Below are positions 29,876-48,965 of a stretch of DNA of 62,314 nucleotides, piece by piece; position 1 is the stretch's first letter; each line of letters opens with the position of its first letter. A program made the position numbers and the translations under genes. This DNA is from Gemmatimonadota bacterium (GTDB lineage: Bacteria > Gemmatimonadota > Gemmatimonadetes > Gemmatimonadales > GWC2-71-9), in contig JBGPDL010000006.1 of assembly GCA_041482275.1 (NCBI GenBank), positions 1 to 62,314 of the forward strand, given 5' to 3'. Under the pieces are notes generated by a model, which was not told where the DNA came from, did not search any database, and was given only the letters and a program-made list of their open reading frames with translations.

Positions 29876-30108
29876 TCGCTCAGGCGCTTCGGGTCGCCGC
29901 CCGACGACAGCGAGCTGGACGTCGGCGGCTGCACGCCGCGCGGCGGTGCCGGCAGGTCGTCGCCGGTCGCGTCCTTGAGACTCCGCTTGAACTCCTTGAT
30001 CCCCTGTCCGATCGACGATCCGATTTCCGGAATCCGCTTCGCGCCGAACACCAGGACCAGCACCAGCAGCAGGATCAGGATGTGGCTGAACGACAGGTCC
30101 CCGAACAT
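29872..30108 (-). CDS. tatA: Twin-arginine translocase TatA/TatE subunit
   Basis: TM helix plus FGAKRIPEIG..IG.GIKEFK. Confidence 0.92.
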   Translation of the reverse strand: MFGDLSFSHILILLLVLVLVFGAKRIPEIGSSIGQGIKEFKRSLKDATGDDLPAPPRGVQPPTSSSLSSGGDPKRLSD

Positions 30109-31387: not shown

Positions 31388-33952
31388 TCACTTCGCCTTC
31401 GCGAGCGCCTTGGCGCGCTCGCCGACGTCCCGGAAGCGGATGTCCACCGCGAACACCCGACCGTACAGCTCGCGCGCCTCCACTCGCTTGCCCTGCTCCT
31501 CGAGGGCCCGGCCCAACCAGTACAAGATGCCGAGGCGCTCCTGGTCGCCCGACGCGGGCAGCTCGAGCGCGCGCCGCAGGATAGACTCCGCCACGACGTG
31601 CGCGCCCTTCTCCATGAAACACACACCCAGCGCCTCCGAGCTCCGCAACTTCCCCTCGGGGGAGCGCAACGCCTTCTGCAGCTGCGCGATCGCTTCGTCC
31701 AGCAACCCCATCTCCTTGAACGCCACGCCCAGGTCGTAGTGCGACTGGAAATCGCCCTCGTCGATATTCTCGTCGATCCCCTGCTTGAAGCGCGCGAGCA
31801 TGTCCCGGAAATCCTGCTCCTCGTCGCCCGTGGGCTCCTCGTCGGCCACCTTCATGCGGGTGTCGCGCTCGGGCAGGTCGCTCGTGAGAATCATCGCTTC
31901 GAGATCCACGAAATCGCCTTCGTCCCCCGCTTCGTCCCGGACCTTCATTTTCGCGTCCCGGGGGTCCGTCTTCCCCTCTGTGTGGCGAGCGGGCGCCTTC
32001 GCCTTCGGCGCCGGCGGCGCCGGCGCGACGGGTGCGAGCATCGCGAGGGCCGCCTTGGCACGCTCGTTGCCCGCATCGTGCTCGGCCACCCGCTGGTAGA
32101 CGGCCCGCGCCTTGTCCGGCAGATCGCTCCGCAGCAGCGTGTCGGCGAGCTCCACGTAGGCGTCGACCAGCCTCGCCTTGTCGCCCGACTTGAACGCGAA
32201 CTCGACCTGCTTCTGGCGGTGGCGCACACTGTTGGGGTCGAGCCGTAGGATCTCGTCGACCAGGTCCTGCGCCTGGGGCAGGTTTCCGCGGTTCTCGAAC
32301 CCGGTGGTCGCAAGGTCCAGCTCCTCGATGCCCCGCTCGCGCTCCCCCGCCTCGATCAGCGCCTCGCCCAGGGTGTGATGCGCCTCGGGATCGTCGGGGT
32401 CGTCGGCGACGCGCGCCTCGAGCTCCTCGATCGTCGGCTTCGCCGCCGGCGCCTCGATGTTGGCGAACACCAGCGACCCGGTCTCGTCGGCCTGGTTCAC
32501 CACGCCGTCGAGCCCCAGGTCGATCGCGGCCGAGCGGCGCCCCGGCGACGTGATCGAGGTGTCGTTTTCCGTCTGGATGAACCCCACGGTCCCGGCGACC
32601 GGCGCTGCGTCATCGATCGCGAGCGGCTGGTCGTCGACGTCGTGACCCTTCCCCGTGGTAGCCGTGTCGAAATCGGGCTCGAGCTCGAGCGGCGGCACCT
32701 CCATTGCCGTCTTGCGGTTGGGGGACGTGGGCGGCGGCGGCGCCGGACGCCTGGGCACAACCGGCTTCACCCTGGCCGGCTCGGCCCGAGGCGGCTCGAG
32801 GGTCGGAGCGGGCGACTTGGGAACGGTCATCCGTAACGGTGCCCCCTTCGCAGAGATCGGCGCAGCGGGTCGCTTCGGCACGACCGGCGCCACCCGGCCC
32901 GGCGGAGCCTTCGGCGGAACCGCCTTCGGGGCCGCAACGGGCGGCTCGATTTCCAGCTCGCTCTCGAGCAGCGGCTCGAGCTCGATCTCTCCGTCCAGCG
33001 AGTCCACATCCCCGGTCGCGGTGGGCTCGAGCTCCGCCAGCGGAACGACGTCGTCCGCGGTGACCTCGTCCCGTAACGACGGAACGTTCCTCGCTTCGAG
33101 CTGCACGTCGCCGAACTCCGTGCTGGTCGTCTCGAACCCCTCGAGCACTCCGCCCCCGGCGGTGGACTCGACTCCTTCGACGAGACTGGTCGATTCGATC
33201 TCCAGCGACACGTCGGGCTCTGCCGTCACCGGCTCGATCAGACTCTCCGCGACGGTCTCCGGCTCGGGCGCAGGCAGCGGCGCCGGTTTGGCTGGAGCGG
33301 TGGCGCGCGGCCCGGTGGGCGCCTTCGGAACGGGCGGAGCGTCGACGTCCAGAAATACCAGGCTCGACGTCTTGCGCTTGCCGGACTTGGACGGGTCATC
33401 GAGGGGCGCGACTTTCGCCGCCGCCGCGGCGCCGCCGATCGAGCGACGCTCCGGGGCGCCGTACATCCGCAGATGCTCCTCCAGGGTCTCGCGCAGATGG
33501 GCGCCCTCACCCGACAGGTCGGCGAACTCCTTCAGCGCGGCGAACGCCTGCTGGATCTTTCCCACCTTGTGCATCCGCTCCGCATACTCGACGAAGTTCT
33601 GCTTGGCCTCGGCCATGAAGCCCTTCGCCGCGTACAGCTTCGCGAGCTTCAGATAGGTCGTCTGCCGCCCCGGCGCGTTGCGCAGCACCTTGTTGCACAT
33701 CGCGATGGCATTGTTGTGGAAGCCCAACTCGGCGTACCTGTCGACCGCGCGGTCGTAGTAGTCGGCGGCCAGGGCGGGGTCCCTGACCTTGAGATACAGA
33801 TCGCCGACGCGATTGAAGACGGAGAGATCCGGGTTGGGGTCGCCCTCCGCATCCTGCTCCGTGAGGATTTCGAGCCACGCCTCGATGGCCCCCTTGGGGT
33901 CTTTGGCCTCGAGCGTGCGGGCCTTGTCCTTGAGCTTCTCAAGTTTCGACAT
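31388..33952 (-). CDS. Large TPR protein with long disordered acidic/Pro-rich centre
   Basis: TPR clusters at both ends; C-terminal SHYDLGVAFKEMGLLDEAI. Confidence 0.85.
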   Translation of the reverse strand: MSKLEKLKDKARTLEAKDPKGAIEAWLEILTEQDAEGDPNPDLSVFNRVGDLYLKVRDPALAADYYDRAVDRYAELGFHNNAIAMCNKVLRNAPGRQTTYLKLAKLYAAKGFMAEAKQNFVEYAERMHKVGKIQQAFAALKEFADLSGEGAHLRETLEEHLRMYGAPERRSIGGAAAAAKVAPLDDPSKSGKRKTSSLVFLDVDAPPVPKAPTGPRATAPAKPAPLPAPEPETVAESLIEPVTAEPDVSLEIESTSLVEGVESTAGGGVLEGFETTSTEFGDVQLEARNVPSLRDEVTADDVVPLAELEPTATGDVDSLDGEIELEPLLESELEIEPPVAAPKAVPPKAPPGRVAPVVPKRPAAPISAKGAPLRMTVPKSPAPTLEPPRAEPARVKPVVPRRPAPPPPTSPNRKTAMEVPPLELEPDFDTATTGKGHDVDDQPLAIDDAAPVAGTVGFIQTENDTSITSPGRRSAAIDLGLDGVVNQADETGSLVFANIEAPAAKPTIEELEARVADDPDDPEAHHTLGEALIEAGERERGIEELDLATTGFENRGNLPQAQDLVDEILRLDPNSVRHRQKQVEFAFKSGDKARLVDAYVELADTLLRSDLPDKARAVYQRVAEHDAGNERAKAALAMLAPVAPAPPAPKAKAPARHTEGKTDPRDAKMKVRDEAGDEGDFVDLEAMILTSDLPERDTRMKVADEEPTGDEEQDFRDMLARFKQGIDENIDEGDFQSHYDLGVAFKEMGLLDEAIAQLQKALRSPEGKLRSSEALGVCFMEKGAHVVAESILRRALELPASGDQERLGILYWLGRALEEQGKRVEARELYGRVFAVDIRFRDVGERAKALAKAK

Positions 33953-35216
33953 GGAGTCCTAAAGATACCGGCGCCGGGGAGAGCGGACAAGCGGAACCCC
34001 CTGTCCAGACGGCGGTTACGAGGTTTTCCCCCATCCAGTACGCCGCTTCCCGCCAATCCGTCACGGCGCATGCCACGAGGTCGGCGCGAAACCCGGGGGC
34101 GATCTGACCCCGATCGCCGGCCAGGCCGAGCGCTGCTGCGGCGTTCACGGTCACCGCGTGGACGACCTCCGCGTGGCGCAGGCCGAGCTGCGAGACGCCG
34201 AGCGCCATCACCAGCGGCAGGCTGACGGTGGGCGACGATCCCGGGTTGAAGTCGGTCGCGAGCGCGACGGCCGCGCCGGCCTCCACCAAGCGCCGGGCCG
34301 GTGCCTGCTGGCGCCGGCCGAGGAACACCATCGTCGCGGGCAGCAGAACGGCCACGGTGTCGCTCGCCGCGAGCGCGCGGATCCCGGCCTCCGAGATTCC
34401 GGCGAGGTGGTCCGCGGACAGCGCTCCCAGCTCGGCAGCGAGCTCGGCCCCGCCGGAGCCTTCGAGCTCGTCGGCGTGCAGCTTCACGGCCAGCCCATGA
34501 CGTCGCGCGGCGCTGAGGATGGCGCGGGTTTCCGCGACGTCGAACACGCCGGGCTCGCAGAACACGTCGCATGCCACGGCCAGCCGCTCGCGGGCCACCG
34601 CGGGGATCATCTCGTCGCACAGCAAGCGTACGTACTCCGCGCGGGCGTTGCGGTACTCCGGCGGGACCTCGTGGGCGCCGAGGAACGTGGGGACCAGAGC
34701 GGCGCGCTCCGTGGCAGCCACGTCACGGACGACACGCAGCTGCTTGAGTTCCGTGGCGGGATCGAGCCCATATCCCGATTTCACTTCGACTGTGGTCGCG
34801 CCATGTGCGAGGAGCGTGCGCACGCGCGCGCGGGTGAGCGCGGCCAGTTCGCCCTCGCGCCGCGCGCGCACGTCGCGCACCGACTGCAGGATTCCCCCGC
34901 CCCCTGCCGCGATCGTCTTGTAGTCCTCACCGAGGGCCCGGCGCTCATGGTCGTCGAGCCGGGGCGCCCCGAACACGGCGTGCGTGTGACAATCGATCAG
35001 GCCGGGGAACAGGACGCCGCGCACCTCCTCCGCCACCGCACCGCCGTGCATGTCCCGCAGCGCTGCGTAAGATCCGACCGCCCGGATGCGGTCGCCGTCC
35101 AGCAATACCGCGGCGTCGTGGAGCACCTCCAGCTCGCGCAACTCCCGGCCGCGGCGTGCCCGTGGCGGGCCACGGCCGGTCACGATCTGGCGGGCGCCGA
35201 CGAGCAGCGTACTCAG
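33939..35216 (-). CDS. hutI: Imidazolonepropionase (probable CTG start)
   Basis: [30 protein letters not shown] and [10 protein letters not shown]. Confidence 0.93.
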
Positions 35217-36877
35217 TCGCCCGCCTCCCGCATCGGCAATCGAATGCCGTGACGGCGAGCGGTGGCGAGGGCATCCGGGTAGCCCGCGTCCGCGTGGCGC
35301 GCCACGCCGATCCCCGGATCGTTCGTGAGCACGCGTTCGAGCCGCCGCCCGGCCGCGGGCGACCCGTCCGCCACGCTCACCTGCCCGGCGTGTAACGAGT
35401 TGCCGATCCCGACCCCACCCCCGTGATGGAACGACACCCACCCGGCGCCCGACGCCGTGTTGAGCAGCGCGTTGAGAATCGGCCAGTCGGCGATGGCGTC
35501 GGACCCATCCCGCATCGCTTCCGTCTCCCGGAACGGCGAAGCGACCGATCCCGTGTCGAGGTGATCCCGCCCGATCACCACCGGTGCGCTGAGCTCCCCC
35601 CGCCCCACCAGGTCGTTGAGCGCGCATCCGAAGGCGGCCCGCTCGCCCTGCCCCAACCAGCAGATGCGGGCGGGCAAGCCCTGGAACGCCACGCGCTCCT
35701 GGGCGAGCCCGATCCAGCGACGCAGATGCTCCTGGTCGGGGAAGAGCTCGAGCACCAGCCGATCGGTGCGTTGCAGGTCCTTCGGGTCCCCCGAGAGGGC
35801 GACCCAGCGGAACGGCCCCTTTCCCTCGCAGAACAGCGGCCGGATGTACTCGGGAACGAAGCCGGGAATGTCGAACGCGTCCGCCACGCCAGCGTCCCGC
35901 GCCTGGGCGCGGATGTTGTTGCCGTAGTCGAAAACCACCGCGCCCCCGCGCCGCAGCGCGAGCATCGCCTGCACGTGCGTCGCGATGCTCGCGACCGCGC
36001 GCCGGACGTACTCGGCTGGCGCGCTCCGCCGCAACGCTATCGCCTGCTCGAGGTCGAGTCCCGCCGGCACGTACCCGTGCAGCGGATCGTGCGCCGAGGT
36101 TTGATCGGTGACGACGTCGGGGACGTAGCCCTGCCGCACCAGCGTGGGAAGCACCTCGGCGCAGTTCCCGATCAGTCCGACCGACAGGGCCCGGCCCTCC
36201 CGTTTTGCCTCGTCGCACCACCGCAACGCTTCCTCCAGGGACGCGGTCGCGCGATCGAGATACCGGGTGTCGAGCCGGCGCTGCACGCGAGCGGGGTCCA
36301 CCTCCACCGCGAGGCACACACCGTCATTCAGCGTGGCGGCGAGCGGCTGCGCGCCGCCCATTCCGCCCAATCCGCCCGTCACCACCAGCCGCCCCCGCAG
36401 CGATCCCCCGAAGTGCCGCCGCCCCACGGCCGCGAACGTCTCGTAGGTCCCCTGCAGGATGCCCTGCGTGCCGATGTAGATCCACGATCCCGCCGTCATC
36501 TGGCCGTACATGATCAGGCCCCGGCGCTCGAGGTCCCGGAACACGTCCCACGTCGCCCAGCGCCCGACCAGATTCGCGTTCGCGATGAGCACGCGAGGTG
36601 CGTCCGGGTGCGTCGTGAACACGCCCACCGGCTTCCCCGACTGCACGAGTAGCGTCTCATCATCGGCGAGCGTGAGCAGCGTGCGGCAGATCGCGTCGAA
36701 CGCGGGCCAGTCGCGGGCCGCCTTCCCGGTACCGCCGTACACGACCAGGTCCGCCGGGCGCTCCGCCACCTCCGGATCGAGGTTGTTCATGAGCATCCGC
36801 AGCGCCGCTTCCTGGACCCATCCGCGGCACGACTTGGCCGGGCCCCGCGGCGCGCGCACCACTCGAGGCCCGCTCAC
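35213..36877 (-). CDS. hutU: Urocanate hydratase
   Basis: [28 protein letters not shown] and GRDHLD; GTGA overlap with hutH. Confidence 0.97.
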
Positions 36878-38358
36878 GCCGCCTCGGGGTCCAAGATGCG
36901 GGCGCGCACCGCGCTCGCGATCCGCTCGATGTCGCCGCCCGCCGGCCGGTCGCCGTCGGCCGCGGCCACCAGGCTGCGCACCGCCGCGTACGTCCGCGCC
37001 ACGCCCCGGCCCGGCCGCAGCGGTTTGAGGAATTCGAGGCCCTGCGCCGCCGCGAGCAACTCCACCGCAACGACCCGCACGGCGTTGGCGAGGATCCGGT
37101 CCGCCTTCCACGCGGCCGTCATGCCCATGGGCACCACGTCTTCCTGGTTCCCTTCGGTGGGTATGGATTGGACGCTCGCCGGCGTCGCGAGGACTCGGCA
37201 CTCGGCGACCAGCGCGGCCGCGGCGATCTGCGGGGTCATGAACCCGGACTCGAGGCCGGGATTCCGGGCGAGGAACGGCGGCAGGCCGGAGGAGAGATCG
37301 GGATTCACAATGCGCTCGAGCCGGCGTTCGGCGAGGCCGGCAAGGGTGGCGAGCGCGATGCCGATCACGTCCAGCGCCAATGCGATGGGCTGCCCGTGAA
37401 AGTTGCCGCCGGAGATGATCTCGTCGCCGAACACGAGCGGGTTGTCGGTCGCGGCGTTCAGCTCGGTCGCCACCAATCGCTCCGCGAATGCCAGCCCCTC
37501 CCCCACCGCACCGAGGACCTGCGGCGTGCAGCGCAGGGAATAGGCATCTTGCACGCGCGGGTCGTTCTCGCGATGCGACTCCCTGATCTCGGAGTCGGCG
37601 AGCAGCTCGCGCAACAGGGCGGCGGAGCGCTGCTGGAACGGATGGGGACGCGCGTCGTGGATCCGCGGGTCGAACGGCTCAGGCGAGCCCCGCACGGCCT
37701 CGAGACTCATCGCGGCCGCCGCGTGCGCCGTGCGCCACAGCGTCCAGGCGTCGTGCACGAGCAGCGCCGCGAGCCCCGTCTGCGCTTGCGTCCCGTTGAC
37801 GAACGCCAGCCCCTCCTTCGCTTCCAGCGTGATCGGTCGCAGCTTGTTGGCCCGGAGCGCCGCGCCGTCTTCCCCCTCACCGATCATCGCCAGCGCCAGG
37901 TGCGCGAGCGGCGCGAGATCGCCCGACGCCCCGACGCTCCCCTGCGACGGGACCCGCGGGTGCACCCTGGCGTTCAGCATCTCGACGATGAGCCCCGGCA
38001 GCTCGGGGCGCACGCCGCTCGTGCCCCGCAGCAGCACGTTGGCTCGCAACAACATCATCGCCCGTACCGCGTCGACGGAGAGCGGATCCCCCACCCCCGA
38101 CGCGTGACTGCGAATCAGATTGCGCTGCAGCTCGCGCGCCTGCTCCGGTTTGATCCGCACGTGCGCCAGCTTCCCAAAGCCGGTATTGACGCCGTAGATC
38201 GTATCCCCGCGGGCAACCGCCGCCTCGACCGCCCGGCGCGACGCGGTCACCGTCGCCAGCGACGGCGCGGCGATGGCGACGGACGCGCCGCCGCGGGCGA
38301 CGGCCACAACGTCCTCGATCGAGAGGGAATGGCCGTCCAGCGTGACGAGGGCTGACAT
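36874..38358 (-). CDS. hutH: Histidine ammonia-lyase
   Basis: [14 protein letters not shown] (MIO), QDAYSLRC and GGNFHG. Confidence 0.97.
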
Positions 38359-38484: not shown

Positions 38485-39651
38485 CTACCGCGACTCTGCC
38501 GCCCGGGATCCCGTGAGGGCCGGACCCTTAGGAACAACCAGCTCCGGATTCCCGGGATCGGTCTGCACGCTCCAATCGAAGATCACGTACTGGCGGCTGA
38601 CCGCGGTGACGCGGAGCGCCGCATAATGGTATTGCCCGCCTTCCAGGCGCTGGAAAACGTAACCGTAGCCCGGCACCGCCTGGATCATGTTGGGTGCATA
38701 GCCCGTCGCCGGCGCGAAGTCGATGGCGGTCAAGTCGGCCACCGGCGAGTTCTGGTACAGCCGCATGGAGTCCCCTGCGAACTCCGGCACGAGCCACAGC
38801 GAAGAGTCGCTCGGTTGGACCAACACCGAGAAGTCGATGTCGGTGCGGTTCCCGTCTTGCACGAGACCCAGCTCGCCCGCGTCTCCGTACCCGTTGGCGT
38901 CTCCGTCGAGCCAGAACCGGAAGCCCGATTGCGGCGTGTTCACGCCGAACGCCCACACCAGGACATTCCGCGCGTCGGGCCGCGGCGTGTCCTGCCACAG
39001 CGGCGACCACAGGCTCTCGTAGCCCTCCAGACTGATCGCCGAAACCCCGAAGCAGCGCGGTACGCCGTTTTGCAGCTGCGCCGCCAGGAACTCGTGCGAT
39101 ACCGTGGTGCCCTCAAGCGCCCAGTCCGCGCCGCACAGCCCCCGGTCGAGGTCGTAGCTCGTGCTGTAGACACGGTACCACTTGAACCGCTGGGGATCGG
39201 TCAGGAAGGCATTGTCGGCCCAGTCCAGATGGATCGCGCTGTCGAGCGAGATCGAGCCGATGCTCGCCGGCGCCTCGAGTTGGAGACGCTCGTCCACCGT
39301 GATGGTATTGGATGCGTCGCTCTCGCCGCCGCCCAAGTCGACCGCCGTCACGAAGTACTGCAGGTGCGGCACGCCGTTGTCGTGGAACGTGTTGGACGTC
39401 GTCTCGCCGCGCAGCAGGAACTGCCCTCCGGTGCTGCCGCGCGAGTAGATGCGGTAGCTCTGCAGATCCGGGCTCTGCACGTCGTCCCAGGCGAGCAGGA
39501 TCCCGGCCGGGCTGTTGGGAGCGCCGCTCGGGTCGAGCTCGTAGGCGAGATTCTGGGGCGCGGGGAGGGCGGAGAATGAGACGGTGTCGTTGCGGCACGC
39601 AGCGGCCGCGAGACTGGCGACGACCAGGAGCGAGCGGGGCGAAAACGGCAT
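38485..39651 (-). CDS. Hypothetical lipoprotein with two fibronectin-III-like repeats
   Basis: Start moved to ATG 39651 (GAGG SD); lipobox AAAC; two AP...L.W......Y R.YS units. Confidence 0.8.
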   Translation of the reverse strand: MPFSPRSLLVVASLAAAACRNDTVSFSALPAPQNLAYELDPSGAPNSPAGILLAWDDVQSPDLQSYRIYSRGSTGGQFLLRGETTSNTFHDNGVPHLQYFVTAVDLGGGESDASNTITVDERLQLEAPASIGSISLDSAIHLDWADNAFLTDPQRFKWYRVYSTSYDLDRGLCGADWALEGTTVSHEFLAAQLQNGVPRCFGVSAISLEGYESLWSPLWQDTPRPDARNVLVWAFGVNTPQSGFRFWLDGDANGYGDAGELGLVQDGNRTDIDFSVLVQPSDSSLWLVPEFAGDSMRLYQNSPVADLTAIDFAPATGYAPNMIQAVPGYGYVFQRLEGGQYHYAALRVTAVSRQYVIFDWSVQTDPGNPELVVPKGPALTGSRAAESR

Positions 39652-39685
39652 GGGTGCCTCAGGGCTGCGGGTCGGTGGCGGAGAA

Positions 39686-39701
39686 AGCATGCCCCGTGCC
39701 G
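39686..39701 (-). promoter_or_regulatory. Sigma-54 -24/-12 promoter
   Basis: CGGCACGGGGCATGCT (GG-N10-GC), about 35 nt upstream of the lipoprotein ATG. Confidence 0.6.
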
Positions 39702-39773
39702 TAGCGTAACCGGCGCACGGCGAGGCACTTGCGATGCCGCGCGCCATCCGCGGTGTCATCCTGGGGGGACGGT

Positions 39774-42700
39774 TTAGCGCGCTAGCGACTGCTGCTCGTA
39801 GTTGAACTTGATATCCGGCTGGTCGAGCAGCGAGATGTAGAAACTGAAGGCGAAGTTACCGGTCGCGGTCTTCACAAACGAAAAGCTCGCGCGCCAGCGA
39901 TGCAGGTCGCGCTCCAGGCTGATCGTGTGGTCGCCGAACTGGCGCGTATTGAAGTCGTAATGGGAGTTCCACACGGCCGACCAGCGCGCCGTAGGCTGGA
40001 ACGAGAGACCGAGCCCCATCTCCCGGCGCCCGGCCAGGTTGCTGATGCCCGTGGAGTCGGCGTGCGGGCGGCTGCGCGAGCTGCTGTAGGTCACCGACAG
40101 GTTGAATCCGCGGCCTCCTCCCCCGATCGACAGCCCGCCCGGACCGACGAACTCCTTCCGACCGAACGGGCTGGGGGAGCCTGGCTGACCCTCGGTGCTC
40201 GCCGGGGGAGGTGTCGGCGGGGGCTTCCCCAGGCCAAACAGGCGGGCAATCCCGCGAATCGTCGCTGGCGTGACCGCGAACTGGGCGGACACGTTCGTCA
40301 AGAAGGGATCGAACTTCGCCGAGTCGGTGCCGACCTGACCGTTCCACAGGTCGTGCGTCAGGCTGAGCGAGAACCCAGGCAGCACGTCCGACGCGAGCGT
40401 GTTGTTCATCGTGGCCGTGGTCCAGCCCGTGCGGCCGCGCTGTCTCGCCTGCTCGAAGTTGTACGATAGCGCACTCGTGTTGATGGTGAGCAACTTGATC
40501 TTGCGCACGGCGCGCTCGGTGGTGTCCCCCGGCGGCGGCTTGAGCTTTGCTTCGAAGTTTTGCGACAGGCCCAAGCTGATGGTCTGCTGCGGGTCGCTCC
40601 CGGAGTTCAGGAGCCGGTGTGTCGGGTCGATGGCGTCCCGGAACGCGCTCGAGACCGCGGCGCCGGGAGCATACGCGTAACTCACGATCGGTGAGAACGA
40701 GTGACGGATGCGCGCGATCGGCCCGATGCCGGGGAAGAAACCGAAGAACGTGGGAGTGAGGCTGGCGTTGAATTGCAGCCGCTTGCCCTGTCGCAGGAAC
40801 TGACCGTTGGTGAACTGGTTGCGGATCATGAACGGGCCCGCCGACGTCTGATTCACGATCGCGATGCCGGGCTGGAGCTTCCACGTGCCGGTAAAGAGCG
40901 ATGGCAAGTTGATGCCGGTTTGCCATTCGACGGTCGTGCTGAACGTCTGGTCGAACAGCACGCGGCGGCGGCCGCCCGCGGCCGTCGAGTCCGGGATGTC
41001 GAACGCCTGCCGCGCGTTGCTGATGGCATCGTTCACCACGAAACTGTTGGCCCAATTCCACGGCCCGATGCGGAGCGGCGTCTGCAGGTTGAGCGTCGTC
41101 TGCCGGTTGTCGGCAAACAGCGCCAGCGTGTCGAGTCCCCCTCCCGCACCAGGGACGACGAGGGGCGTCGGGCCCTGGTGAAACGCCTGTGCGTTCTGGA
41201 ACGAGAATCCCGGCGACCAGGTGATGGACGGCGTGACGTTCACCGGCGACGGCGTCAGGCTGATGGAGGGAAGGACTTGCGAGATGAGGCCGTTCCCGAT
41301 TTCCTGACGCCTGTTGCCGCCAATCGTGAGCGTTCCCCAGTTGAACTGTCTGGTGAAGTTCACTTGCGACCCGAGGCTCGCAGTCGCGAGGAATGGGTTC
41401 ACGGTATTCCTCCGAATCACCGTGGAGTTGGTCGAGTAATCGATGTTCGCGTTGAACCGGGTGCGCGAGGAAAAGCTCTGCTGGTGCTGCCAGCCCAACC
41501 GCAGGGAGTTTGCCGCCAGGCCGAGCTGCACATAGCGCTCGACCGACAGGCCGCCCGACACAAATCGATCGAGCCACCGGTAGTTCACCTGCCCCCGGAG
41601 CGACACATAGCGCCCCGCGTACCAGTCCGCCGACGCGAGCAAGTCCACGTAGTCGTTCAGCACGATGTAGTACCCGAAGTTCGCCACGTGTCGCTGGTAC
41701 GTGCGGACCGGACGCACGATATCGTTCAGCCCCAAGCGCGGTACCAGGATGCCGCTGCGCCGTCCCCTGCGCACGTCCTGGAAGATGAACGGCAGCCACA
41801 TGATCGGGACATCGTGGACGTACAGGACCGCCGGACGCGCCACCATCACGTTCTTATTGAGCCACTTCATCTGACCTGTCGCAAAGTGGTAGTCGGGAAC
41901 GGGGCTGTCGTCGGAGGTGATCTCGCTGCTCGCACCGTACAAGCGCGTCGATCCCGAGTCGACCGCCAGGTCGCCGCGCACGTACCACCGCGCGGCGCCC
42001 TGCTGGAAGTCAGTCAGGGCATTGTGCACCGTGCCGCGCTTGATGCAGGTGTCGTACCGCATCCCCTCCCCGACCATCACGGTCGCCTGATCGAACAGGC
42101 GGGGGTCTCCGACGGCGTCAAGCCGGCAGCTGCGCTGGTGATAGCGAATCGAGTCCGATTCGAGCTTGGTCCCTTCGCGCTCGACGTACGCCTCGCCGCG
42201 GAGATGAATCGTCTCGGTATCGCCGCCCTGGACAATCAGCGTATCGGCCACGTACTGCGTGATCCGGTATCCCTGGAGCTTGAGCAGCGAATCGATCATC
42301 GCGTCGGGCGGCGGGAAGCTGCGGGTCGGGCCCGTGGGGAGTCCGAGCCGGCGGGCGAGGGCGGTGTCGAGGGCGCGGGCCTGGGCGGACTCGGCGGCGG
42401 TGCGCGGGGGCGTCGTATCGGGCCGGGCCGGCCGCCGGGTGGGCGGCGTTTGCGCGCCGAGCGAGCCGCCCGCGGCGAGGAGCAGCAGCGCGACGATCCC
42501 CGCCGCGCTCGCGGCCCCCGTTTGTGCCCGTCGCGCCCGTCGTTTCTCCACCACCCAGGCGCACCAGATGCCGACCTCGTACAACCCCCACAGCGGTACC
42601 ATCATCAGCAGCATCGACACGGCGTCGGGCGGCGCGAGCAGCGCCGCCGCCACGGCGGAGATCACGAGGGCATAGCGCCGGTTGCGCGCCAGGAACTGAG

Positions 42701-43271
42701 GCGTGACCAGGCCAAGGGACGCGAGGATCACGACGACGAGCGGCAGCTCGGTCACGACCCCGAAGGCGAGGATCAGCTGGGCGGCGAACGCAAAATACTT
42801 GTCCGCCGTGATGAGGGGGTCGAACACGCCCCGCTGAAAGCTCAGCAGAACGGCCAGCGCCCGCGGCAGCACCCAGAAATACGCCGCGGCGGCGCCGGCC
42901 AGAAACAACAGGGCTCCAGCGGAGAGCGTCGGCACGATGAGTCGGCGCTCCCGCGCATACAGCGCCGGCACGAGAAACGCCCAGGCCTGGTAGCCCACGA
43001 CCGGCGAAGCGAGAAGCAGTCCCAGGACGAAGGCGAACTTGAGCGTGATGAAGAAGGGCTCGGTGGGGCTCGTCACGCGGAGCTTGCCGCCCGGGATGAG
43101 CGGCGCGATCGGCCGGATGAGGAGGCCGATGACATCCACGCGCTCCACGATCACCCACCCCACCAGGGTGCCGACCACGAGGGCGAGCAGGCTGTAGAGG
43201 ATGCGCCAGCGCAGCTCCTCGACGTGATCGAGGAACGGCATCTCGGCTCGGTTGTCCGCGGTCTCAGGCAC
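39774..43271 (-). CDS. tatC: TatC fused in frame to a putative LPS-assembly protein LptD
   Basis: Residues 1-~240 are TatC (MPFLDHVEELRWR, SPTEPF, WAFLVPALY..ER, PPD..S, LYE); after residue ~274 an LptD-like region (PDYHF, ARPAVLY, LPF, GILVP, beta-strand-rich C-terminus ERDLHRW). No stop between them. Confidence 0.88.
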   Translation of the reverse strand: MPETADNRAEMPFLDHVEELRWRILYSLLALVVGTLVGWVIVERVDVIGLLIRPIAPLIPGGKLRVTSPTEPFFITLKFAFVLGLLLASPVVGYQAWAFLVPALYARERRLIVPTLSAGALLFLAGAAAAYFWVLPRALAVLLSFQRGVFDPLITADKYFAFAAQLILAFGVVTELPLVVVILASLGLVTPQFLARNRRYALVISAVAAALLAPPDAVSMLLMMVPLWGLYEVGIWCAWVVEKRRARRAQTGAASAAGIVALLLLAAGGSLGAQTPPTRRPARPDTTPPRTAAESAQARALDTALARRLGLPTGPTRSFPPPDAMIDSLLKLQGYRITQYVADTLIVQGGDTETIHLRGEAYVEREGTKLESDSIRYHQRSCRLDAVGDPRLFDQATVMVGEGMRYDTCIKRGTVHNALTDFQQGAARWYVRGDLAVDSGSTRLYGASSEITSDDSPVPDYHFATGQMKWLNKNVMVARPAVLYVHDVPIMWLPFIFQDVRRGRRSGILVPRLGLNDIVRPVRTYQRHVANFGYYIVLNDYVDLLASADWYAGRYVSLRGQVNYRWLDRFVSGGLSVERYVQLGLAANSLRLGWQHQQSFSSRTRFNANIDYSTNSTVIRRNTVNPFLATASLGSQVNFTRQFNWGTLTIGGNRRQEIGNGLISQVLPSISLTPSPVNVTPSITWSPGFSFQNAQAFHQGPTPLVVPGAGGGLDTLALFADNRQTTLNLQTPLRIGPWNWANSFVVNDAISNARQAFDIPDSTAAGGRRRVLFDQTFSTTVEWQTGINLPSLFTGTWKLQPGIAIVNQTSAGPFMIRNQFTNGQFLRQGKRLQFNASLTPTFFGFFPGIGPIARIRHSFSPIVSYAYAPGAAVSSAFRDAIDPTHRLLNSGSDPQQTISLGLSQNFEAKLKPPPGDTTERAVRKIKLLTINTSALSYNFEQARQRGRTGWTTATMNNTLASDVLPGFSLSLTHDLWNGQVGTDSAKFDPFLTNVSAQFAVTPATIRGIARLFGLGKPPPTPPPASTEGQPGSPSPFGRKEFVGPGGLSIGGGGRGFNLSVTYSSSRSRPHADSTGISNLAGRREMGLGLSFQPTARWSAVWNSHYDFNTRQFGDHTISLERDLHRWRASFSFVKTATGNFAFSFYISLLDQPDIKFNYEQQSLAR

Positions 43272-43308: not shown

Positions 43309-44097
43309 CTACCGCCCCAGGCGTTGGAGCTTGTCGCGCGCCAGGTTGGCCTCTTCGGAGCGGGCGTACCCGGCGATGACCCTGGCGTAGTACGTCCGGG
43401 CCGCCGCCTTGTCGCCCCGCTGCTCGGCCAGCAACCCGAGCTTGTACAGCGCCGCAGGGGCCCGCGGAGAGTTGGGGTACGTCTTCACGAGCTGTTGGTA
43501 CACTGCGGCCGCCGAATCCGCGCTTTCGCCGGCGAACGTCTCGCCGATATGAAACAGCGCGTCGGGGGCGCGCTCGTCGGTGGGGAACACCCGCAGAAAC
43601 TCCCGGAACCCCACCCGGGCGGTAGCGAGGCTGCCGCGGCGGAACTGCTGGAGCGACAAATCCCACATCTGGTCCGGACCGGGACCAGCCGGGTTCCCCG
43701 AGGGTCCGACCGGGGCGCCGGGCGCGGCGCGCGACGTGTCGAGCACCGGGAGGGGCTGGCGCGCCTGTGCTTCCAGGCGGCCGCGGAGCTCGGTGAGCCG
43801 CTGTTGGCTCTGGCCGGTGAGCTCCTGCACTGCCACGAGCTGCTGCTGCACGGCCAGTAAATCGGTCTTCATGTCGCCGCGCAGCTGCACCAGGTACGCC
43901 TGCTGGGCGACGATCTTGTCCTGCACCGTAGCAAGCAGCGCGCGGACTGTGTCGATGGCGGCGGCGCGTTGACTATCGGCGCGGTCGCGCTCGACGCGGA
44001 GCGCCTCGACCTGAAGCTCCACCCGCCGGACATCGCCTTTCAGCGCGCATCCGGCGGTGAGCCCCAGGGCGAGCAACAACGGCACCGATCGCGTCAC
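43309..44097 (-). CDS. cpoB: Tol-Pal system protein YbgF/CpoB
   Basis: Lipobox TAGC, coiled coil and C-terminal TPRs; follows pal. Confidence 0.85.
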   Translation of the reverse strand: MTRSVPLLLALGLTAGCALKGDVRRVELQVEALRVERDRADSQRAAAIDTVRALLATVQDKIVAQQAYLVQLRGDMKTDLLAVQQQLVAVQELTGQSQQRLTELRGRLEAQARQPLPVLDTSRAAPGAPVGPSGNPAGPGPDQMWDLSLQQFRRGSLATARVGFREFLRVFPTDERAPDALFHIGETFAGESADSAAAVYQQLVKTYPNSPRAPAALYKLGLLAEQRGDKAAARTYYARVIAGYARSEEANLARDKLQRLGR

Positions 44098-44108
44098 GAG
44101 CGAATACG

Positions 44109-44726
44109 TCAGGGTTGTTTCAGGTCGTCGCCGCCCGAGAGAATCTCAAACTCGTCGCGCCGATTCTGGGCCCAAGCGTTCTCGTCGTGCCCGGAGTCGA
44201 TGGGCCGTTCCTCGCCGTACGACGCGGTCTCGACACGACTCGGGTCGATGCCGTGACTGACGAGGTACTGCTTGGCCGCTGTGGCCCGTCGGTTGCCGAG
44301 CGCGAGGTTGTATTCGTCCGAGCCGCGCTCGTCGCAATGCCCGCTGATCCGGACACGCAGCGCCGCATTCGCCTGCAGGATCGCCACCTTCTGATCGAGG
44401 ACGGCGGCGTCCCCCGCCCGGATGATCGCCTTGTCGTAGTCGAAGTGGATCATGGTCGCGAGGATGGTCTTCACCGCCTCGGTCGTCCGTCCGAGCGCGG
44501 CGAGCGAGTCGGCGACCCGCTGGCGGCGCTCGGCCTCTGCGCGCGCGCGGCGGTCGGCTTCGGCCTGCTGCGCCGCAGCGATCGAATCCAGCCGCGCCCG
44601 CTCGGCCGCCGCGATGGAGTCCGCATTGGCGGTTTGCGGGGCCGGCGGCTCCGGCTTGGCGCCGCCGCAGGCAGCGACCGCCGCTACGGCGAAACAGCTC
44701 AGCAGGAGCAAGGGTAGGCGTTTCAT
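44109..44726 (-). CDS. pal: Peptidoglycan-associated lipoprotein
   Basis: Lipobox VAAC; FDYD, GHCDERGSDEYNLALG and NRR. Confidence 0.95.
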   Translation of the reverse strand: MKRLPLLLLSCFAVAAVAACGGAKPEPPAPQTANADSIAAAERARLDSIAAAQQAEADRRARAEAERRQRVADSLAALGRTTEAVKTILATMIHFDYDKAIIRAGDAAVLDQKVAILQANAALRVRISGHCDERGSDEYNLALGNRRATAAKQYLVSHGIDPSRVETASYGEERPIDSGHDENAWAQNRRDEFEILSGGDDLKQP

Positions 44727-44742
44727 CGGGTCCTCTCCGATT

Positions 44743-46128
44743 TCAAGGGGTAGACGAAGCGGTCTCCGGTAAACGGGGAGACCAAGCCGGCAGGCGCGCG
44801 CCGCTCTTTTGCAGCAGCGGACGGATGCGGCCGGTTTCCAAATCGATCATCCAGAGCTGCCGATACCCCGAACGATCCGACACAAAGGCCATATGGCGAC
44901 TGTCGGGTGCCCAGGTTGGATCTTCGTTCCGCCCGACCGAGGTGAGCTGCCGCACAGCGCGCGTCCGCACGTCGAGGACGAACACCTGCAAGGTGCCGCC
45001 CACGTCGCGGTGGAAGGCGACGGTCTGTCCGTCGGGCGACCACTCCGGCGCATTGGACGAACCGGTCGCACCGTAGTCGAACGGCGCGAACAACTGTGGG
45101 TCCGTCCCGTCCGCCGCCATCGTGTAGATTTGCGGCAGCCCGGATCGCGTCGACACGAAGGCGATCCGCTGTCCGTCGGGACTGTAGGTCGGTGACAAGT
45201 TGTCGTAAAAGCGCCCCACGGTCAAGCGCTGTAAGCAGCAGCCGTCCTTGACGTTCACGGTGTAGACGTCGGTGCCTTCCTCCGTCGCGCGACTGAATGC
45301 GAGGGTCTTGCCATCGGGGGAGAAGGACGGCGTGAAATCGAGCGCCTGGCCGGTGGTCGGCACCGGGGTGCGCCTCCCGGACGCCACGTCCTGGACGAAC
45401 AGCCGGCCGTGACCCTCCCAGAACTCCATGTACCCGAACCGACGCCCGTCGGGCGCCCATGCGGGCGAGAGCGCCGCGTGATCGCTCGATGACACCAGGC
45501 GTTGGTCCGCCCCGTCCTGATCGATGGCGTACACCTTGCCTTCCATCACGAACAACACGCGCGTCGCCGCCGTACCGCCCACGCCGAGCGACGCCTCGAG
45601 CACGCGGTCGGACAAGCGATGCACCGCCAGCCGGAACCCAGGGTCCGCGAGGGCAGGCAGGCGAGCGCGCAGCTCGCGCCGCACGCCGCCCGCGGCCACG
45701 TCGTGCACGGTGACAACCGTCGTGTCGCCCGGCCCTGCCGTGAGCGCCACCGCAAAGTCGGCCCCGAGGGCCTGGTACAGCGGATAGTTGAGCCCCGCCG
45801 CGGCGGCTGCACCGCCGGTCGCCGGGCGACCGGACGCCACCGTCGCAATGCGGATCGAATCCACTCCCGGAAGCGTGATCAGCTCGAACCGGTCGCTGTA
45901 GTCGAGGTCGCGCGCCACGATCGCGCGCACCGAGTCGAGTCCGGCGGCGCGCCCCGGCAGCACCACCATCCCGGGCCGTACCCCGGGGCGGTACACAATG
46001 CCAATGCGAACGCCGCGGTCGATGGCCAAGGTGTCTTGGGCGCTCAGACGGCCACGCAGACCGACCGTCAGGAACGCTGCGGAGACACCCACCGCCAGAC
46101 CGCCAGACCGCCAGACCACCGCCTTCAC
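44743..46128 (-). CDS. tolB: Tol-Pal beta-propeller protein TolB
   Basis: DLDYSDRF and PD40 repeats (P.WSPDG); GTG 46128. Confidence 0.9.
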   Translation of the reverse strand: MKAVVWRSGGLAVGVSAAFLTVGLRGRLSAQDTLAIDRGVRIGIVYRPGVRPGMVVLPGRAAGLDSVRAIVARDLDYSDRFELITLPGVDSIRIATVASGRPATGGAAAAAGLNYPLYQALGADFAVALTAGPGDTTVVTVHDVAAGGVRRELRARLPALADPGFRLAVHRLSDRVLEASLGVGGTAATRVLFVMEGKVYAIDQDGADQRLVSSSDHAALSPAWAPDGRRFGYMEFWEGHGRLFVQDVASGRRTPVPTTGQALDFTPSFSPDGKTLAFSRATEEGTDVYTVNVKDGCCLQRLTVGRFYDNLSPTYSPDGQRIAFVSTRSGLPQIYTMAADGTDPQLFAPFDYGATGSSNAPEWSPDGQTVAFHRDVGGTLQVFVLDVRTRAVRQLTSVGRNEDPTWAPDSRHMAFVSDRSGYRQLWMIDLETGRIRPLLQKSGARLPAWSPRLPETASSTP

Positions 46129-46811
46129 TGCCGCTTCCCGCTGAAGTAAAACCGGACGAACAGCACGTCCGAATTCCAGCCGGCCGGCAGCGCCCCGAAC
46201 ACCTTGAAGCGCCCAGCTTGCTCCACCGCTCCCTGGGCTTCGAGGTCGAAGGCAAAGTTGCCCGAACGCCTGACGAACTGGAGGTCGCTCACGGACCCGT
46301 CGCGATGCACGAAGAACGAAACCTCCGCCTCGAGGGGACTGCTTTGGAGCGGGCGTTGCCAGCGCCGCAACACTTGCGCCACGATGTTCTGCAAGTACTC
46401 GGGGAACGGAAACTCCACCCCTTCCGTGCTCACCGTCGCCACGTCCGAGCCGGTGGAGGGCGTTTCGCCGGGGAGCGGCGCCGCTTTGGGCGTCGTGCGC
46501 GGCGCCGCCTCGCGTTTCGTGTTGTCGGCTACAGGCGGCGGCGCCGCCTGGGACACGGTGCTCTTGGGCGACGGCGCCTTGGGGGCCGGCGCGGGCTTTT
46601 CCTCGGCCGGGCGATCCACTGCCTCGGGCGCTTTGCGCGCGTTCGGTGCCGGCTCGGGCGCCGCCACAAGGTGCACGCGATACGTCGGGGGCACGGGCTT
46701 GCGGGCGTCGGCGGCCCCAGCCACGAGGAACACCGCGGCGAGCGCGTGGACCGCGACCGTGCCCGCGAGGCCAACACGCATACTGTCGGGACCCCGCGGT
46801 CCGCGCCTCAC
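46125..46811 (-). CDS. TolA/TonB C-terminal domain protein
   Basis: TM helix with His, Pro-rich linker and SGNFAFD; position in the tol cluster. Confidence 0.85.
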   Translation of the reverse strand: MRRGPRGPDSMRVGLAGTVAVHALAAVFLVAGAADARKPVPPTYRVHLVAAPEPAPNARKAPEAVDRPAEEKPAPAPKAPSPKSTVSQAAPPPVADNTKREAAPRTTPKAAPLPGETPSTGSDVATVSTEGVEFPFPEYLQNIVAQVLRRWQRPLQSSPLEAEVSFFVHRDGSVSDLQFVRRSGNFAFDLEAQGAVEQAGRFKVFGALPAGWNSDVLFVRFYFSGKRQ

Positions 46812-47242
46812 CGCTCCACCGTTTCCGGCTCCGCCACCAGACCGACATCGCTCACCCCCGACGTGCGGATCACGGCCAGAACCTGAACCACGGCGGCGTA
46901 CGGTACCCGCCCATCGGCCCGGAGGTACACCCCAGTGGGGTGTTTGGTTCGCACAAAGGCTGGGAATGTTGCGCGGAAGTCCTCATAAGAGAGGGGCGCC
47001 TGGTCGATGAAGATGCGACCGTCCCGGTCGAGCGTGACCACCAGCCCCGACTTGGGCTCGAGCGGGCGCGCCGCCGCGCGCGGCAACCGGACGTCCACCC
47101 CGCCCTGCATGATCGGCGCCGTGATCATGAAAATGATCAACAGTACGAAGGCCACGTCCACGAGGGATGTGACGTTGATGTCGGCGTTCAACGGCAGCTC
47201 GCCGTGCCCGCGCAGCCCGCCGCCGCCCACGAGACCGGCCAC
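46808..47242 (-). CDS. tolR: ExbD/TolR family protein
   Basis: INVTSLVDVAFVLLIIFMITAP and LRAD; GTG 47242. Confidence 0.9.
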   Translation of the reverse strand: MAGLVGGGGLRGHGELPLNADINVTSLVDVAFVLLIIFMITAPIMQGGVDVRLPRAAARPLEPKSGLVVTLDRDGRIFIDQAPLSYEDFRATFPAFVRTKHPTGVYLRADGRVPYAAVVQVLAVIRTSGVSDVGLVAEPETVER

Positions 47243-47964
47243 TAGAGCCTCCCTTCGCGGGCCAGCGTCGCGATGATCTCCTGGGCGAACCCTTCCAGCT
47301 CGCCGGCGAACAGGCCGAGCCGATTCACAAACAAGTTGTAGGCCATGACCGACGGCACGGCGACCGCCAGGCCCGCCACCGTAGTGACGAGGGCCTCCGC
47401 GACGCCCGGAGCGACGGCTCCGATGTTGCCGGAGCCTCCGACGGCGATGCCGATGAACGCGTCCATGACGCCGAGTACCGTGCCAAGCAGACCGAGCAAC
47501 GGGCTCACCGAGCCGAACGTGGCCAGCCACGGGATGAACCGGGCCGCGGCATCCCGCTCCGCCGCGACCTCCTTCGCGAGCACCATCCGCAACGCCTCGA
47601 GCTGCGTCGTGGTCAGAGCGCTCTGGGTGGCGACGGTGGGGCCGTTGTCCTTCAAGCCGCCCGGCTTCAATTCCGAGAAGAAGAGAATGCCCTCACGCAG
47701 CAGGCGGTTGTACGGCGAGGAAGGCAGCCGCATCGCCGCATGATACGCGTCATCGAGCCGCGGCGCCCGCTCGATCTCCGCCATGAACCGGTCGGCCTGC
47801 CGCCGCATGCGGCGGAACTGCCACCACTTGAGAAAGATGAGATACCAGGAGACGAGCGAGAACACGACGAGGATCGCGAGCACGAACTTGGTCTCGCGGC
47901 TCGACGTGAGCACGAGCTCCCAGGGCGTTGTGGGAACCGCCCGTCCCACCTGTAGCAGCGGCAC
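47242..47964 (-). CDS. tolQ: MotA/TolQ/ExbB proton channel protein
   Basis: SPLLGLLGTVLG and VAPGVAEALVTT; GAGGAGG SD before GTG 47964. Confidence 0.9.
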   Translation of the reverse strand: MPLLQVGRAVPTTPWELVLTSSRETKFVLAILVVFSLVSWYLIFLKWWQFRRMRRQADRFMAEIERAPRLDDAYHAAMRLPSSPYNRLLREGILFFSELKPGGLKDNGPTVATQSALTTTQLEALRMVLAKEVAAERDAAARFIPWLATFGSVSPLLGLLGTVLGVMDAFIGIAVGGSGNIGAVAPGVAEALVTTVAGLAVAVPSVMAYNLFVNRLGLFAGELEGFAQEIIATLAREGRL

Positions 47965-47981
47965 GCTATCGGCCCTCCTCG

Positions 47982-48965
47982 CTAGTTGCGGTACCCGTCC
48001 GGATGCGCCCGGTGCCAGGCCCATGCGGTCGCCAGGATCTCCTCGAGGCTCGAGTGGCGCGGCCGCCAGCCGAGCAGCCGCTCGGCACGCCCCAGAGCCG
48101 CGACCAGAAACGGCGGGTCTCCCGGGCGCCGGGGCCGAAGGGTCGTCGGGATGGCCCGCCCCGTCACCGCGCGCGCCGCCTCGACAACCGCGAGCACCGA
48201 TTGGCCCTCCCCGGTTCCCAGATTCAGCGCCACCGCGCCGTCGAGATTCGCGTCCAGCGCCCGCAGGTGGGCATCGGCTAGGTCCAGAATGTGGATATAG
48301 TCCCGGACTGCAGTGCCGTCGGGGGTCGGGTAGTCGGATCCGTACACCTCCACCGCCGCGGCGCGCTCCTGCGCCACGCGTAGGATGTTGGGGATCAAGT
48401 GGGTCTCGGGCTCGTGGTCTTCCCCGTAGCGCGCCGAAGCACCCGCGGCGTTGAAATAACGGAGGCTCACCGACGCGAGCCCGTGACTCTGCGCGTAACG
48501 GGCCAGCATGCCCTCGAACTCCACTTTGGTCTCGCCGTAGGGGTTCATCGGCGCAGGCGGCGTGTCCTCGCGGATGGGCTCTGCACCGCGGTGGCCGTAG
48601 ATCGTGCAGGACGAGGAAAAGATCACGCGCGGCACGCCCGCGGCGACTGTCGCGTCGAGCAGCACCCGACCGGCCGTAACGTTGTTGGCGCGGTACTTCG
48701 CCGGATCCACCACCGATTCGGCGACGAGCGCGAACGCCGCGAGGTGCATGAGGGCATCGATCCGTTGCCGGGCGAACAGCTGCTCAAGCACGCGGCGGTC
48801 ACCCACATTCCCCTGGATGAATGCGACGCCGGGCGCGATGGCCGCCCGATGGCCGGTGCTGAGATTGTCGAGCACCATGGGCGTATCGCCCCGGGCCAGG
48901 AGCTGCTCGACCACGACGCTGCCGATGTAGCCCGCCCCGCCGGTGACCAGGACGTTACGGCCCAT
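47982..48965 (-). CDS. galE: UDP-glucose 4-epimerase
   Basis: GGAGYIG, YGETK, LRYFN and DGTAVRDYIH. Confidence 0.95.
   Translation of the reverse strand: MGRNVLVTGGAGYIGSVVVEQLLARGDTPMVLDNLSTGHRAAIAPGVAFIQGNVGDRRVLEQLFARQRIDALMHLAAFALVAESVVDPAKYRANNVTAGRVLLDATVAAGVPRVIFSSSCTIYGHRGAEPIREDTPPAPMNPYGETKVEFEGMLARYAQSHGLASVSLRYFNAAGASARYGEDHEPETHLIPNILRVAQERAAAVEVYGSDYPTPDGTAVRDYIHILDLADAHLRALDANLDGAVALNLGTGEGQSVLAVVEAARAVTGRAIPTTLRPRRPGDPPFLVAALGRAERLLGWRPRHSSLEEILATAWAWHRAHPDGYRN

Follow-up and report, generated by a model that had tools for sequence, protein, structure and literature searches.

How can a single open reading frame (ORF) provide for a protein of the inner membrane and for a β-barrel of the outer membrane? 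This question is raised by tatC::lptD, a gene of an uncultured Gemmatimonadota bacterium (order Gemmatimonadales, GenBank assembly GCA_041482275.1). It lies on contig JBGPDL010000006.1, of which positions 1 to 62,314 of the forward strand were analyzed; this whole stretch is called the window in the following. On the minus strand at 39774-43271, one ORF of 1165 amino acids (aa) with a GTG start runs without any internal stop from a complete TatC, the membrane subunit of the twin-arginine translocation (Tat) system, through a basic cluster, a hydrophobic core and an L-G-A↓Q site into a protein resembling LptD, with a jellyroll and a barrel by fold. The original prediction, made from the letters alone, had described exactly this arrangement, and translation and Pfam confirmed the ORF length, the full TatC and the linker from E242 to A273 (42453-42548) followed by QTPP. 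The TatC-LptD fusion is real and conserved in a large uncultured family of Gemmatimonadales. Its product is probably a membrane polyprotein that signal peptidase I cuts in two, which would leave TatC with a seventh helix.

One reading frame for two membrane proteins

Residues 15-226 match the Pfam TatC family (E 4.7e-62, 209.9 bits versus a cut-off of 25.1), and the tatC equivalog model TIGR00945 scores 196.6 bits versus a cut-off of 132.7; scores with the equivalog models for E. coli-type and archaeal TatC were below their cut-offs. An AlphaFold model built on a 57-row alignment has a mean predicted local distance difference test (pLDDT) value of 72.3 and a predicted template modeling (pTM) score of 0.50, with pLDDT mostly at 70-90 for TatC (residues 13-250) and the barrel and at 50-80 for the jellyroll. 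When the TatC part was compared with the Protein Data Bank (PDB) by Foldseek, it matched 4b4a with a template modeling score (TM-score) by target of 0.81, a root mean square deviation of 3.0 and 39% identity, and 4hts with a TM-score of 0.83. In its equivalog-level score and its fold, the first half is therefore like canonical TatC, which has six helices and both ends in the cytoplasm (Aquifex aeolicus 4b4a, E. coli TatBC 9dzz).

The assignment of the second half to LptD held up as well. Pfam LptD_2 (PF19838) covers residues 477-675 (E 2.2e-38, 132.6 bits versus a cut-off of 22.5), and the best 18 Foldseek matches in the PDB are LptD chains, among them 9kn3_A (E 4.6e-21, TM-score by target 0.43) and 7omm_A (2.9e-19). 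A profile made from 13 LptD parts found LptD 7omm_A (1e-7), LptD 8h1r_A (7.5e-4) and LptA 8onu_A (4.4e-3). The fold expected of LptD, a jellyroll joined to a very large barrel, is present, though TM-scores are modest and the pLDDT of the jellyroll reaches only 50-80. Classical proteobacterial LptD models remained unmatched: PF04453 has no hit in the genome, which is 94.7% complete, and the NCBIfam models PRK04423 and PRK03761 gave 18.5 and 14.7 bits versus 944 and 683. Judged by these scores, the LptD half is a distant relative of the LptD_2 type and not an equivalog of E. coli LptD. Both halves look intact. Since a search of the genome yielded no second TatC match and no further LptD, both functions must come from this ORF. 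The TatA/B partner is encoded too, by the only PF02416 match in the genome (57.4 bits). The parts of the ORF are arranged as follows (TM, transmembrane helix).

39774-43271, minus strand: tatC::lptD, a single ORF of 1165 aa plus stop (stop codon at 39774-39776), from ORF and translation
42549-43271, minus strand: TatC part, residues 1-241, six helices, Pfam match at 42594-43229 (Pfam, TIGR00945, fold match)
42549-42554, minus strand: GTG GTG, encoding V240 and V241 where TM6 ends; could serve as internal start codons but not conserved in this role
42528-42548, minus strand: basic cluster E242-K-R-R-A-R-R248, the ancestral cytoplasmic tail of TatC and here the n-region of the putative internal signal
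42453-42527, minus strand: hydrophobic core and c-region, residues 249-273 (AQTGAASAAGIVALLLLAAGGSLGA)
Between 42453 and 42452, minus strand: predicted signal peptidase I site L-G-A↓Q
42261-42452, minus strand: proline-rich linker of low model confidence, N-terminus of the predicted mature LptD, residues 274-337, with a conserved LGLPTGPxRSFP motif
41772-42260, minus strand: β-jellyroll-like N-terminal domain of LptD, approximately residues 338-500 (AlphaFold strands, profile matches, weak LptD N-domain match)
39828-41690, minus strand: large LptD β-barrel, approximately residues 528-1148, containing the LptD_2 Pfam match (Pfam, AlphaFold, Foldseek)

A fused frame in a fragmented bin of 126 contigs, with more distant relatives carrying separate genes, could in principle stem from a sequencing or assembly error that removed the tatC stop codon or shifted the frame. 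The junction, however, stands in independent data: contigs from three other sequencing runs (X2 record 2, X3 record 6, X4 record 16) cross 42452-42560 without a single gap and differ by substitutions only, and the one substitution within the linker, at 42533, is synonymous at Arg247 according to the codon reading. In the same genus, the frame is open at the junction in each of the 19 loci that cover it, with identities of 71-86%. Within the family, 149 of 151 genomes have a match, and 119 of the 151 have a single stop-free match across the junction, with identities down to 44%; 106 of these 119 are full-length. Leaving out three unpublished genomes changes these numbers to 117 and 104, respectively. 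Two of the fused genomes (G108 and G116) consist of a single contig. An independent scan of species genomes with an LptD alignment gave 68 fused and seven split loci and five at contig ends among the best 80 of 577 relatives; these 80 are all metagenome bins of Gemmatimonadales, Gemmatimonadetes or Gemmatimonadota. In the protein database, the TatC part has matches in 417 clusters of 640-2039 aa; both Pfam families are present on all 120 of them that were listed, and their source names, where given, say only ‘TatC’. The genus loci, the family genomes and the contigs of the other runs rule out an artefact, to which we assign a vanishingly small probability. Separate genes in relatives, together with a stop or an indel in the reads, had been named as the outcome that would speak against the fusion: distant relatives do have separate genes, which is the ancestral state and not an error in the window, and neither stop nor indel occurs at the junction. 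The fusion is solid as a genomic fact.

Of 57 family loci that were fetched, 46 have an open junction, six carry the two genes split but side by side, and five have lptD directly after ybgF with tatC elsewhere in the genome. In one locus with an open junction (L081) the sequence runs off the contig. In another (L079, genome G089), the junction is open and a TAA codon follows about 400 nucleotides (nt) into the LptD part, indicating either a pseudogene or an assembly error. A further sequencing run (X5), which covers only 13 of the 29 bins of the window, yielded a contig of 270 bases that joins 42301 and 42551 with 210 foreign letters in between; with just 21 letters on one side, it was taken as a piece of another organism.

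The junction and its signal-like linker

The junction segment from E242 to A273 reads EKRRARRAQTGAASAAGIVALLLLAAGGSLGA, followed by Q274-T-P-P; it is placed between the TatC and LptD_2 domains as E242-KRRARRAQTGAASAAGIVALLLLAAGGSLGA-273, then Q274-TPP. Assessed by hand for a positive n-region, a hydrophobic core of about 10-20 residues and small or neutral residues at positions -1 and -3, it has the features of a Sec-type signal peptide, i.e., KRRARR, then AASAAGIVALLLLAAGG, then S-L-G-A↓Q. The same anatomy recurs in 107 fused junctions, which were searched for Q with A, G or S at -1 and none of which failed. Every one of them has a basic cluster after TM6, a hydrophobic nine-residue core (Kyte-Doolittle hydropathy 3.0 on average and 2.3 at minimum) and Q at +1. 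Position -1 is occupied by A in 98 cases, by G in eight and by S in one, position -3 by L (59), A (30), V (12) or other residues (6), and position +3 mostly by P (40 of the first 65 junctions). Between 22 and 62 residues separate the basic cluster from Q, and apart from these features the sequence is hypervariable. Conservation of fusion and linker across relatives, which the original prediction had proposed to survey, was found, with 119 of 151 family genomes fused and 107 junctions bearing a signal-like linker.

Stand-alone LptD proteins carry the same features. In sister families, the N-terminal signal peptide ends in the same A↓Q followed by a proline-rich stretch in 11 of 12 cases, and all six split members of the fused family have their own N-terminal signal peptide with the same A↓Q site. 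Hydrophobic core, A↓Q site and proline-rich mature N-terminus are thus common to the fusion and the stand-alone precursors of sister families, and the linker has the anatomy of a Sec-type signal peptide. LptD, a barrel protein, must cross the inner membrane unfolded, and two genes for signal peptidase I are present in the genome (TIGR02227, 162.3 and 128.6 bits versus a cut-off of 47).

The arginine pairs in front of the core call for a separate explanation. Tat signals carry a motif of the S/T-R-R-x-F-L-K type before a weakly hydrophobic core. No such motif was found before the core in the window, where the arginine pairs lack an F-L-K-like continuation (KRRARRAQTG). TatC proteins of sister families that end in a regular stop carry the same basic tail (ERRRAR.., RRRTRR.., YRKRRKRR..), and the cluster is the ancestral cytoplasmic tail of TatC and not a Tat motif. 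Of the signal proposed in the original prediction, the Sec-type anatomy with an A↓Q site common to stand-alone LptD proteins was retained, while its arginine pairs belong to the TatC tail and are neither a feature of the LptD signal nor Tat-like. The further idea that the extra helix with its arginine pairs might occupy the substrate site of TatC itself finds no support here, as the pairs are ancestral tail and the AlphaFold model gives this region no packed position.

Two linkers are unusually long, that of L094 (G103) with an Asp/Gly/Pro-rich insert of about 35 residues and that of L014 (G012) with a Gly/Ala-rich insert, in both cases between basic cluster and hydrophobic core; an Arg or an uncharged stretch still directly precedes the core. 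On the LptD side, a motif LDTAxARRLGLPTGPxRSFP (residues ~300-325, within 42261-42452 on the minus strand) precedes the jellyroll and is conserved across all three families. That it is more conserved than its disordered surroundings suggests that it may be a binding site.

Descent from a split gene pair

In sister families, tatC and lptD are adjacent but separate genes, with the tatC stop overlapping the lptD start (GTGA/ATGA). We compared 14 junctions from two sister families of the order. In twelve, the two genes differ in frame and the tatC stop overlaps the lptD start or directly adjoins it (GTGA or ATGA; TAG then GTG); of the others, L022 is in frame with TAG then GTG and L028 is fused. 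Fifteen loci at class level, picked because both matches sat on one contig, all have the genes adjacent, 14 of them split and one (L176) fused; L178 was counted as split on the basis of an in-frame stop just before the end of the matched stretch. The stand-alone LptD proteins of the sister families are of the same LptD_2 type and are encoded at the same place after ybgF and tatC. Where they are separate, tatC and lptD are translationally coupled by the GTGA/ATGA overlaps.

What the fusion changed can be read from the alignment. The stand-alone sister proteins begin at their own start codon, which overlaps the tatC stop, and have a short n-region of the M-R/K kind; both are gone in the fusion, which has the basic tail of TatC instead. 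Since the basic cluster in the window aligns with the tail of stand-alone TatC proteins and the core plus A↓Q site with the signal peptide of stand-alone LptD proteins, the fusion did away with the stop of tatC and with the start and short n-region of lptD. The positive tail of TatC took over as n-region of the internal signal, and the fusion arose by loss of the tatC stop in the GTGA/ATGA overlap of an ancestral, translationally coupled tatC-lptD pair.

This step was not taken only once, nor was it irreversible. A FastTree phylogeny of 83 LptD sequences, rooted on one sister family, has at least nine changes between the fused and the split state, seven of which are forced by well-supported branches. 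Independent fusions occur in another family (L028 and L176). The tree is most simply explained by a single early fusion in the family followed by several fissions, with fusions outside the family having come about independently. In the split members of the family, lptD again has a start codon that overlaps the tatC stop and encodes an ordinary signal peptide, and the interchange of the two states fits both forms giving the same mature products. With at least nine flips on the tree, the two forms look to be in near-neutral interconversion, and their repeated exchange seems to be a tolerated consequence of having stop and start overlap. Synthesis of TatC and LptD at a ratio of 1:1, which had been put forward as a consequence of the fusion, finds no support as a selected advantage against this background.

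Two further arrangements were seen. Five loci (L089-L093; genomes G052, G170, G174, G047 and G115) have lptD directly after pal-ybgF and tatC on another contig; on the LptD tree these loci fall amid fused lineages, which suggests that a clean removal of tatC from a fused or adjacent state took place. The sister-family genome G035 (L028/L029) combines an independent in-frame tatC-lptD fusion with a second, stand-alone tatC on another contig.

Processing, genomic setting and meaning

How could such a chain give rise to two functional proteins? The following sequence of events is proposed. TatC would be inserted co-translationally with its C-terminus in the cytoplasm, and the basic tail after TM6 would hold the next segment with its N-terminal side in. 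The hydrophobic core (residues ~255-270) would then cross the membrane as a seventh helix and start Sec-dependent export of the LptD part. Signal peptidase I would cut after A273 (L-G-A↓Q274) and release LptD into the periplasm with an N-terminal Gln, ready for assembly in the outer membrane, while TatC would retain the extra helix and have its C-terminus in the periplasm. The topology of insertion, the dependence on Sec and the cut itself are all deduced from the anatomy of the chain, and we regard this course of events as probable.

Several points weigh against it. The cleavage site rests on hand-made criteria, with the search itself demanding Q with A, G or S at -1, and the Leu that occupies -3 in 59 of the 107 junctions is allowed but not preferred by signal peptidase I. 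In the AlphaFold model, linker residues 254-299 have a pLDDT below 50 and no confident or packed position. Two in-frame GTG codons stand just before the basic cluster of the window, some canonical start is present in this region in 74 of 107 junctions, so that a share of LptD may be initiated independently, and non-canonical starts (CTG, ATT) were outside the count. The tree is a FastTree of LptD only with its root set on one sister family. Finally, every fused genome encountered is a metagenome bin, and there is no cultured carrier among the best 80 of 577 relatives.

The GTG codons lead to the first of two other ways in which the locus could work. Ribosomes might restart at V240/V241, or at an equivalent codon in other genomes, and produce LptD with an ordinary signal peptide (M-V-E-K-R-R-A-R-R...), so that TatC read-through would be a mere by-product. 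Initiation at GTG GTG, directly in front of the basic cluster, would indeed yield a textbook signal peptide, and the 74 junctions with an ATG, GTG or TTG upstream of the core are in line with this idea. Conservation argues against it: no column of the alignment keeps a start codon. Over the 19 genus members, the codon of V240 is GTG in ten, ATG in one, GTC in six and ATC in two, and that of V241 is GTG in 11 and GTC in eight. As GTG makes up 61% of the Val codons in the genome, these frequencies are at background, and two of the 19 members lack a start codon at both positions. Where the core is bordered by a Met (as in L051 and L119, among others), V, I or A takes its place in orthologues. A search for ATG, GTG and TTG in the stretch that begins three codons ahead of the basic cluster and ends where the hydrophobic core begins found none in 33 of the 107 fused junctions, which thus offer LptD no start that would include a complete signal peptide. 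These carriers, a third of the total, can make LptD only by way of the fused chain, barring the use of rare start codons. As originally stated, there is no clear Shine-Dalgarno sequence, i.e., no GGAG, GAGG or AGGA motif within 20 nt upstream of GTG GTG. Such motifs are three to five times enriched at a spacing of 4-11 before first ATGs in the genome; Shine-Dalgarno use is modest, and the missing motif is therefore weak evidence against a start at this site. Ribosomes translating TatC would, moreover, pass the site anyway and still give the fused chain. No internal start is conserved, independent initiation is not a conserved route to LptD, and initiation at GTG GTG as the main source of LptD, which the original prediction had held against itself, is in our view quite improbable.

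Alternatively, the chain could remain wholly or partly uncut, so that TatC with its seventh helix would sit in the inner membrane and the barrel of LptD in the outer one, with the proline-rich linker of about 30-60 residues as a covalent tether through the periplasm. That cleavage is a deduction leaves room for this arrangement, and so does the linker after Q274, which is long, rich in proline and disordered in the model; the N-terminal domain of LptD is, furthermore, known to face the inner membrane via the Lpt bridge. A never-cut anchor would, however, have no need of a cleavage site, whereas all 107 junctions retain an A-x-A↓Q-type site amid variable surroundings, and the N-terminal signal peptides of stand-alone LptD proteins end in the same site. 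A tether with a role in its own right is hard to square with the repeated switches between fused and split states, and we know of no protein that is integral to both membranes. A lasting tether is unlikely on these grounds.

Cleavage at the internal signal would place TatC-LptD beside FbcH of Bradyrhizobium japonicum, a polyprotein of cytochrome b and cytochrome c1 that is split at an internal signal peptide, as was demonstrated experimentally. In both cases, one ORF encodes a polytopic inner-membrane protein with a cytoplasmic C-terminus, followed by an internal signal peptide and an exported protein, and once signal peptidase has cut, the upstream protein would keep the signal helix. TatC-LptD has what defines the FbcH kind, namely one ORF, an internal signal peptide at the border and no separate conserved start for the downstream protein. 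There are also clear differences. The products of fbcH are subunits of one complex in one membrane, whereas TatC and LptD belong to unrelated machines, the Tat translocase and lipopolysaccharide (LPS) export, in two membranes. Cleavage of FbcH rests on experiment, that of TatC-LptD on prediction, and the TatC-LptD fusion, unlike FbcH, was gained and lost repeatedly within one order. In the glycoprotein precursors of flaviviruses and bunyaviruses, internal signal peptides after membrane segments are cut by the signal peptidase of the host; those polyproteins belong to viral genomes and the eukaryotic endoplasmic reticulum, and TatC-LptD has no evolutionary relation to them. After the proposed cut, the protein would deviate from canonical TatC by a seventh helix and a periplasmic C-terminus, which may affect the binding of TatA and TatB near TM5 and TM6. 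There is a slim chance that a fraction of the product stays one chain linking both membranes beside the Tol-Pal genes, or that the retained seventh helix alters the binding of TatA or substrates by TatC. If either were true, the fusion would have a function of its own and would not be a tolerated accident.

The fusion gene is part of a cluster on the same strand that comprises tolQ-like, tolR-like, tolB-like, pal-like and ybgF-like genes, then tatC::lptD and finally the gene for a lipoprotein of 424 aa. These genes, and the TatA/B/E gene of the window, are located as follows.

44743-48024, minus strand: TolB-like (PD40 repeats), TolR/ExbD-like and TolQ/ExbB-like genes
44109-44726, minus strand: Pal-like lipoprotein with OmpA domain
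43309-44097, minus strand: tetratricopeptide repeat protein of the YbgF/CpoB type, upstream gene, present upstream of tatC or lptD in 161 of 189 loci
38485-39759, minus strand: predicted lipoprotein of 424 aa with no Pfam family and a signal ending in LAAAAC, directly downstream of lptD
29959-30096, minus strand: TatA/B/E family gene (PF02416), sole match in the genome, about 10 kb from the fusion

The order tolQ-tolR-tolB-pal-ybgF-tatC-lptD is kept through the order and the class (43309-48024 on the minus strand of the window; loci L022-L189). To our knowledge, no functional link between Tat and Lpt has been described. The 424-aa lipoprotein follows lptD in 96 of 189 loci, many of which have too little flank to show it, and could be a partner or plug of the LptD_2-type barrel. 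Further downstream on the same strand (33942-38358), a gene of the histidine ammonia-lyase type (PF00221, E 1.6e-185) and an amidohydrolase gene of the imidazolonepropionase type look like ordinary histidine-utilization genes.

In the literature, no paper on a TatC-LptD fusion was found, although supplementary architecture tables might hold one; in PMC3827258, the words ‘fused’ and ‘fusion’ do not occur. Public annotation calls the fused proteins simply TatC, so that surveys of gene content will miss LptD in these bacteria.

Very few natural polyproteins of bacteria are known to be cut by signal peptidase at an internal signal, and tatC::lptD would be a gene of this rare kind. If it is indeed a polyprotein gene, it joins an essential subunit of an inner-membrane translocase to the essential inserter of LPS in the outer membrane. 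The fusion is fixed in most of a whole family, in more than a hundred species-level genomes, and is embedded in a class-wide conserved tolQ-tolR-tolB-pal-ybgF-tatC-lptD gene order that is documented here. The repeated fusion and fission within one order is a natural experiment, in which overlapping stop/start pairs turn into fusions and revert. For the bacteria that carry it, the fusion implies that LptD would be targeted co-translationally behind a membrane protein and that TatC would tolerate an extra helix.

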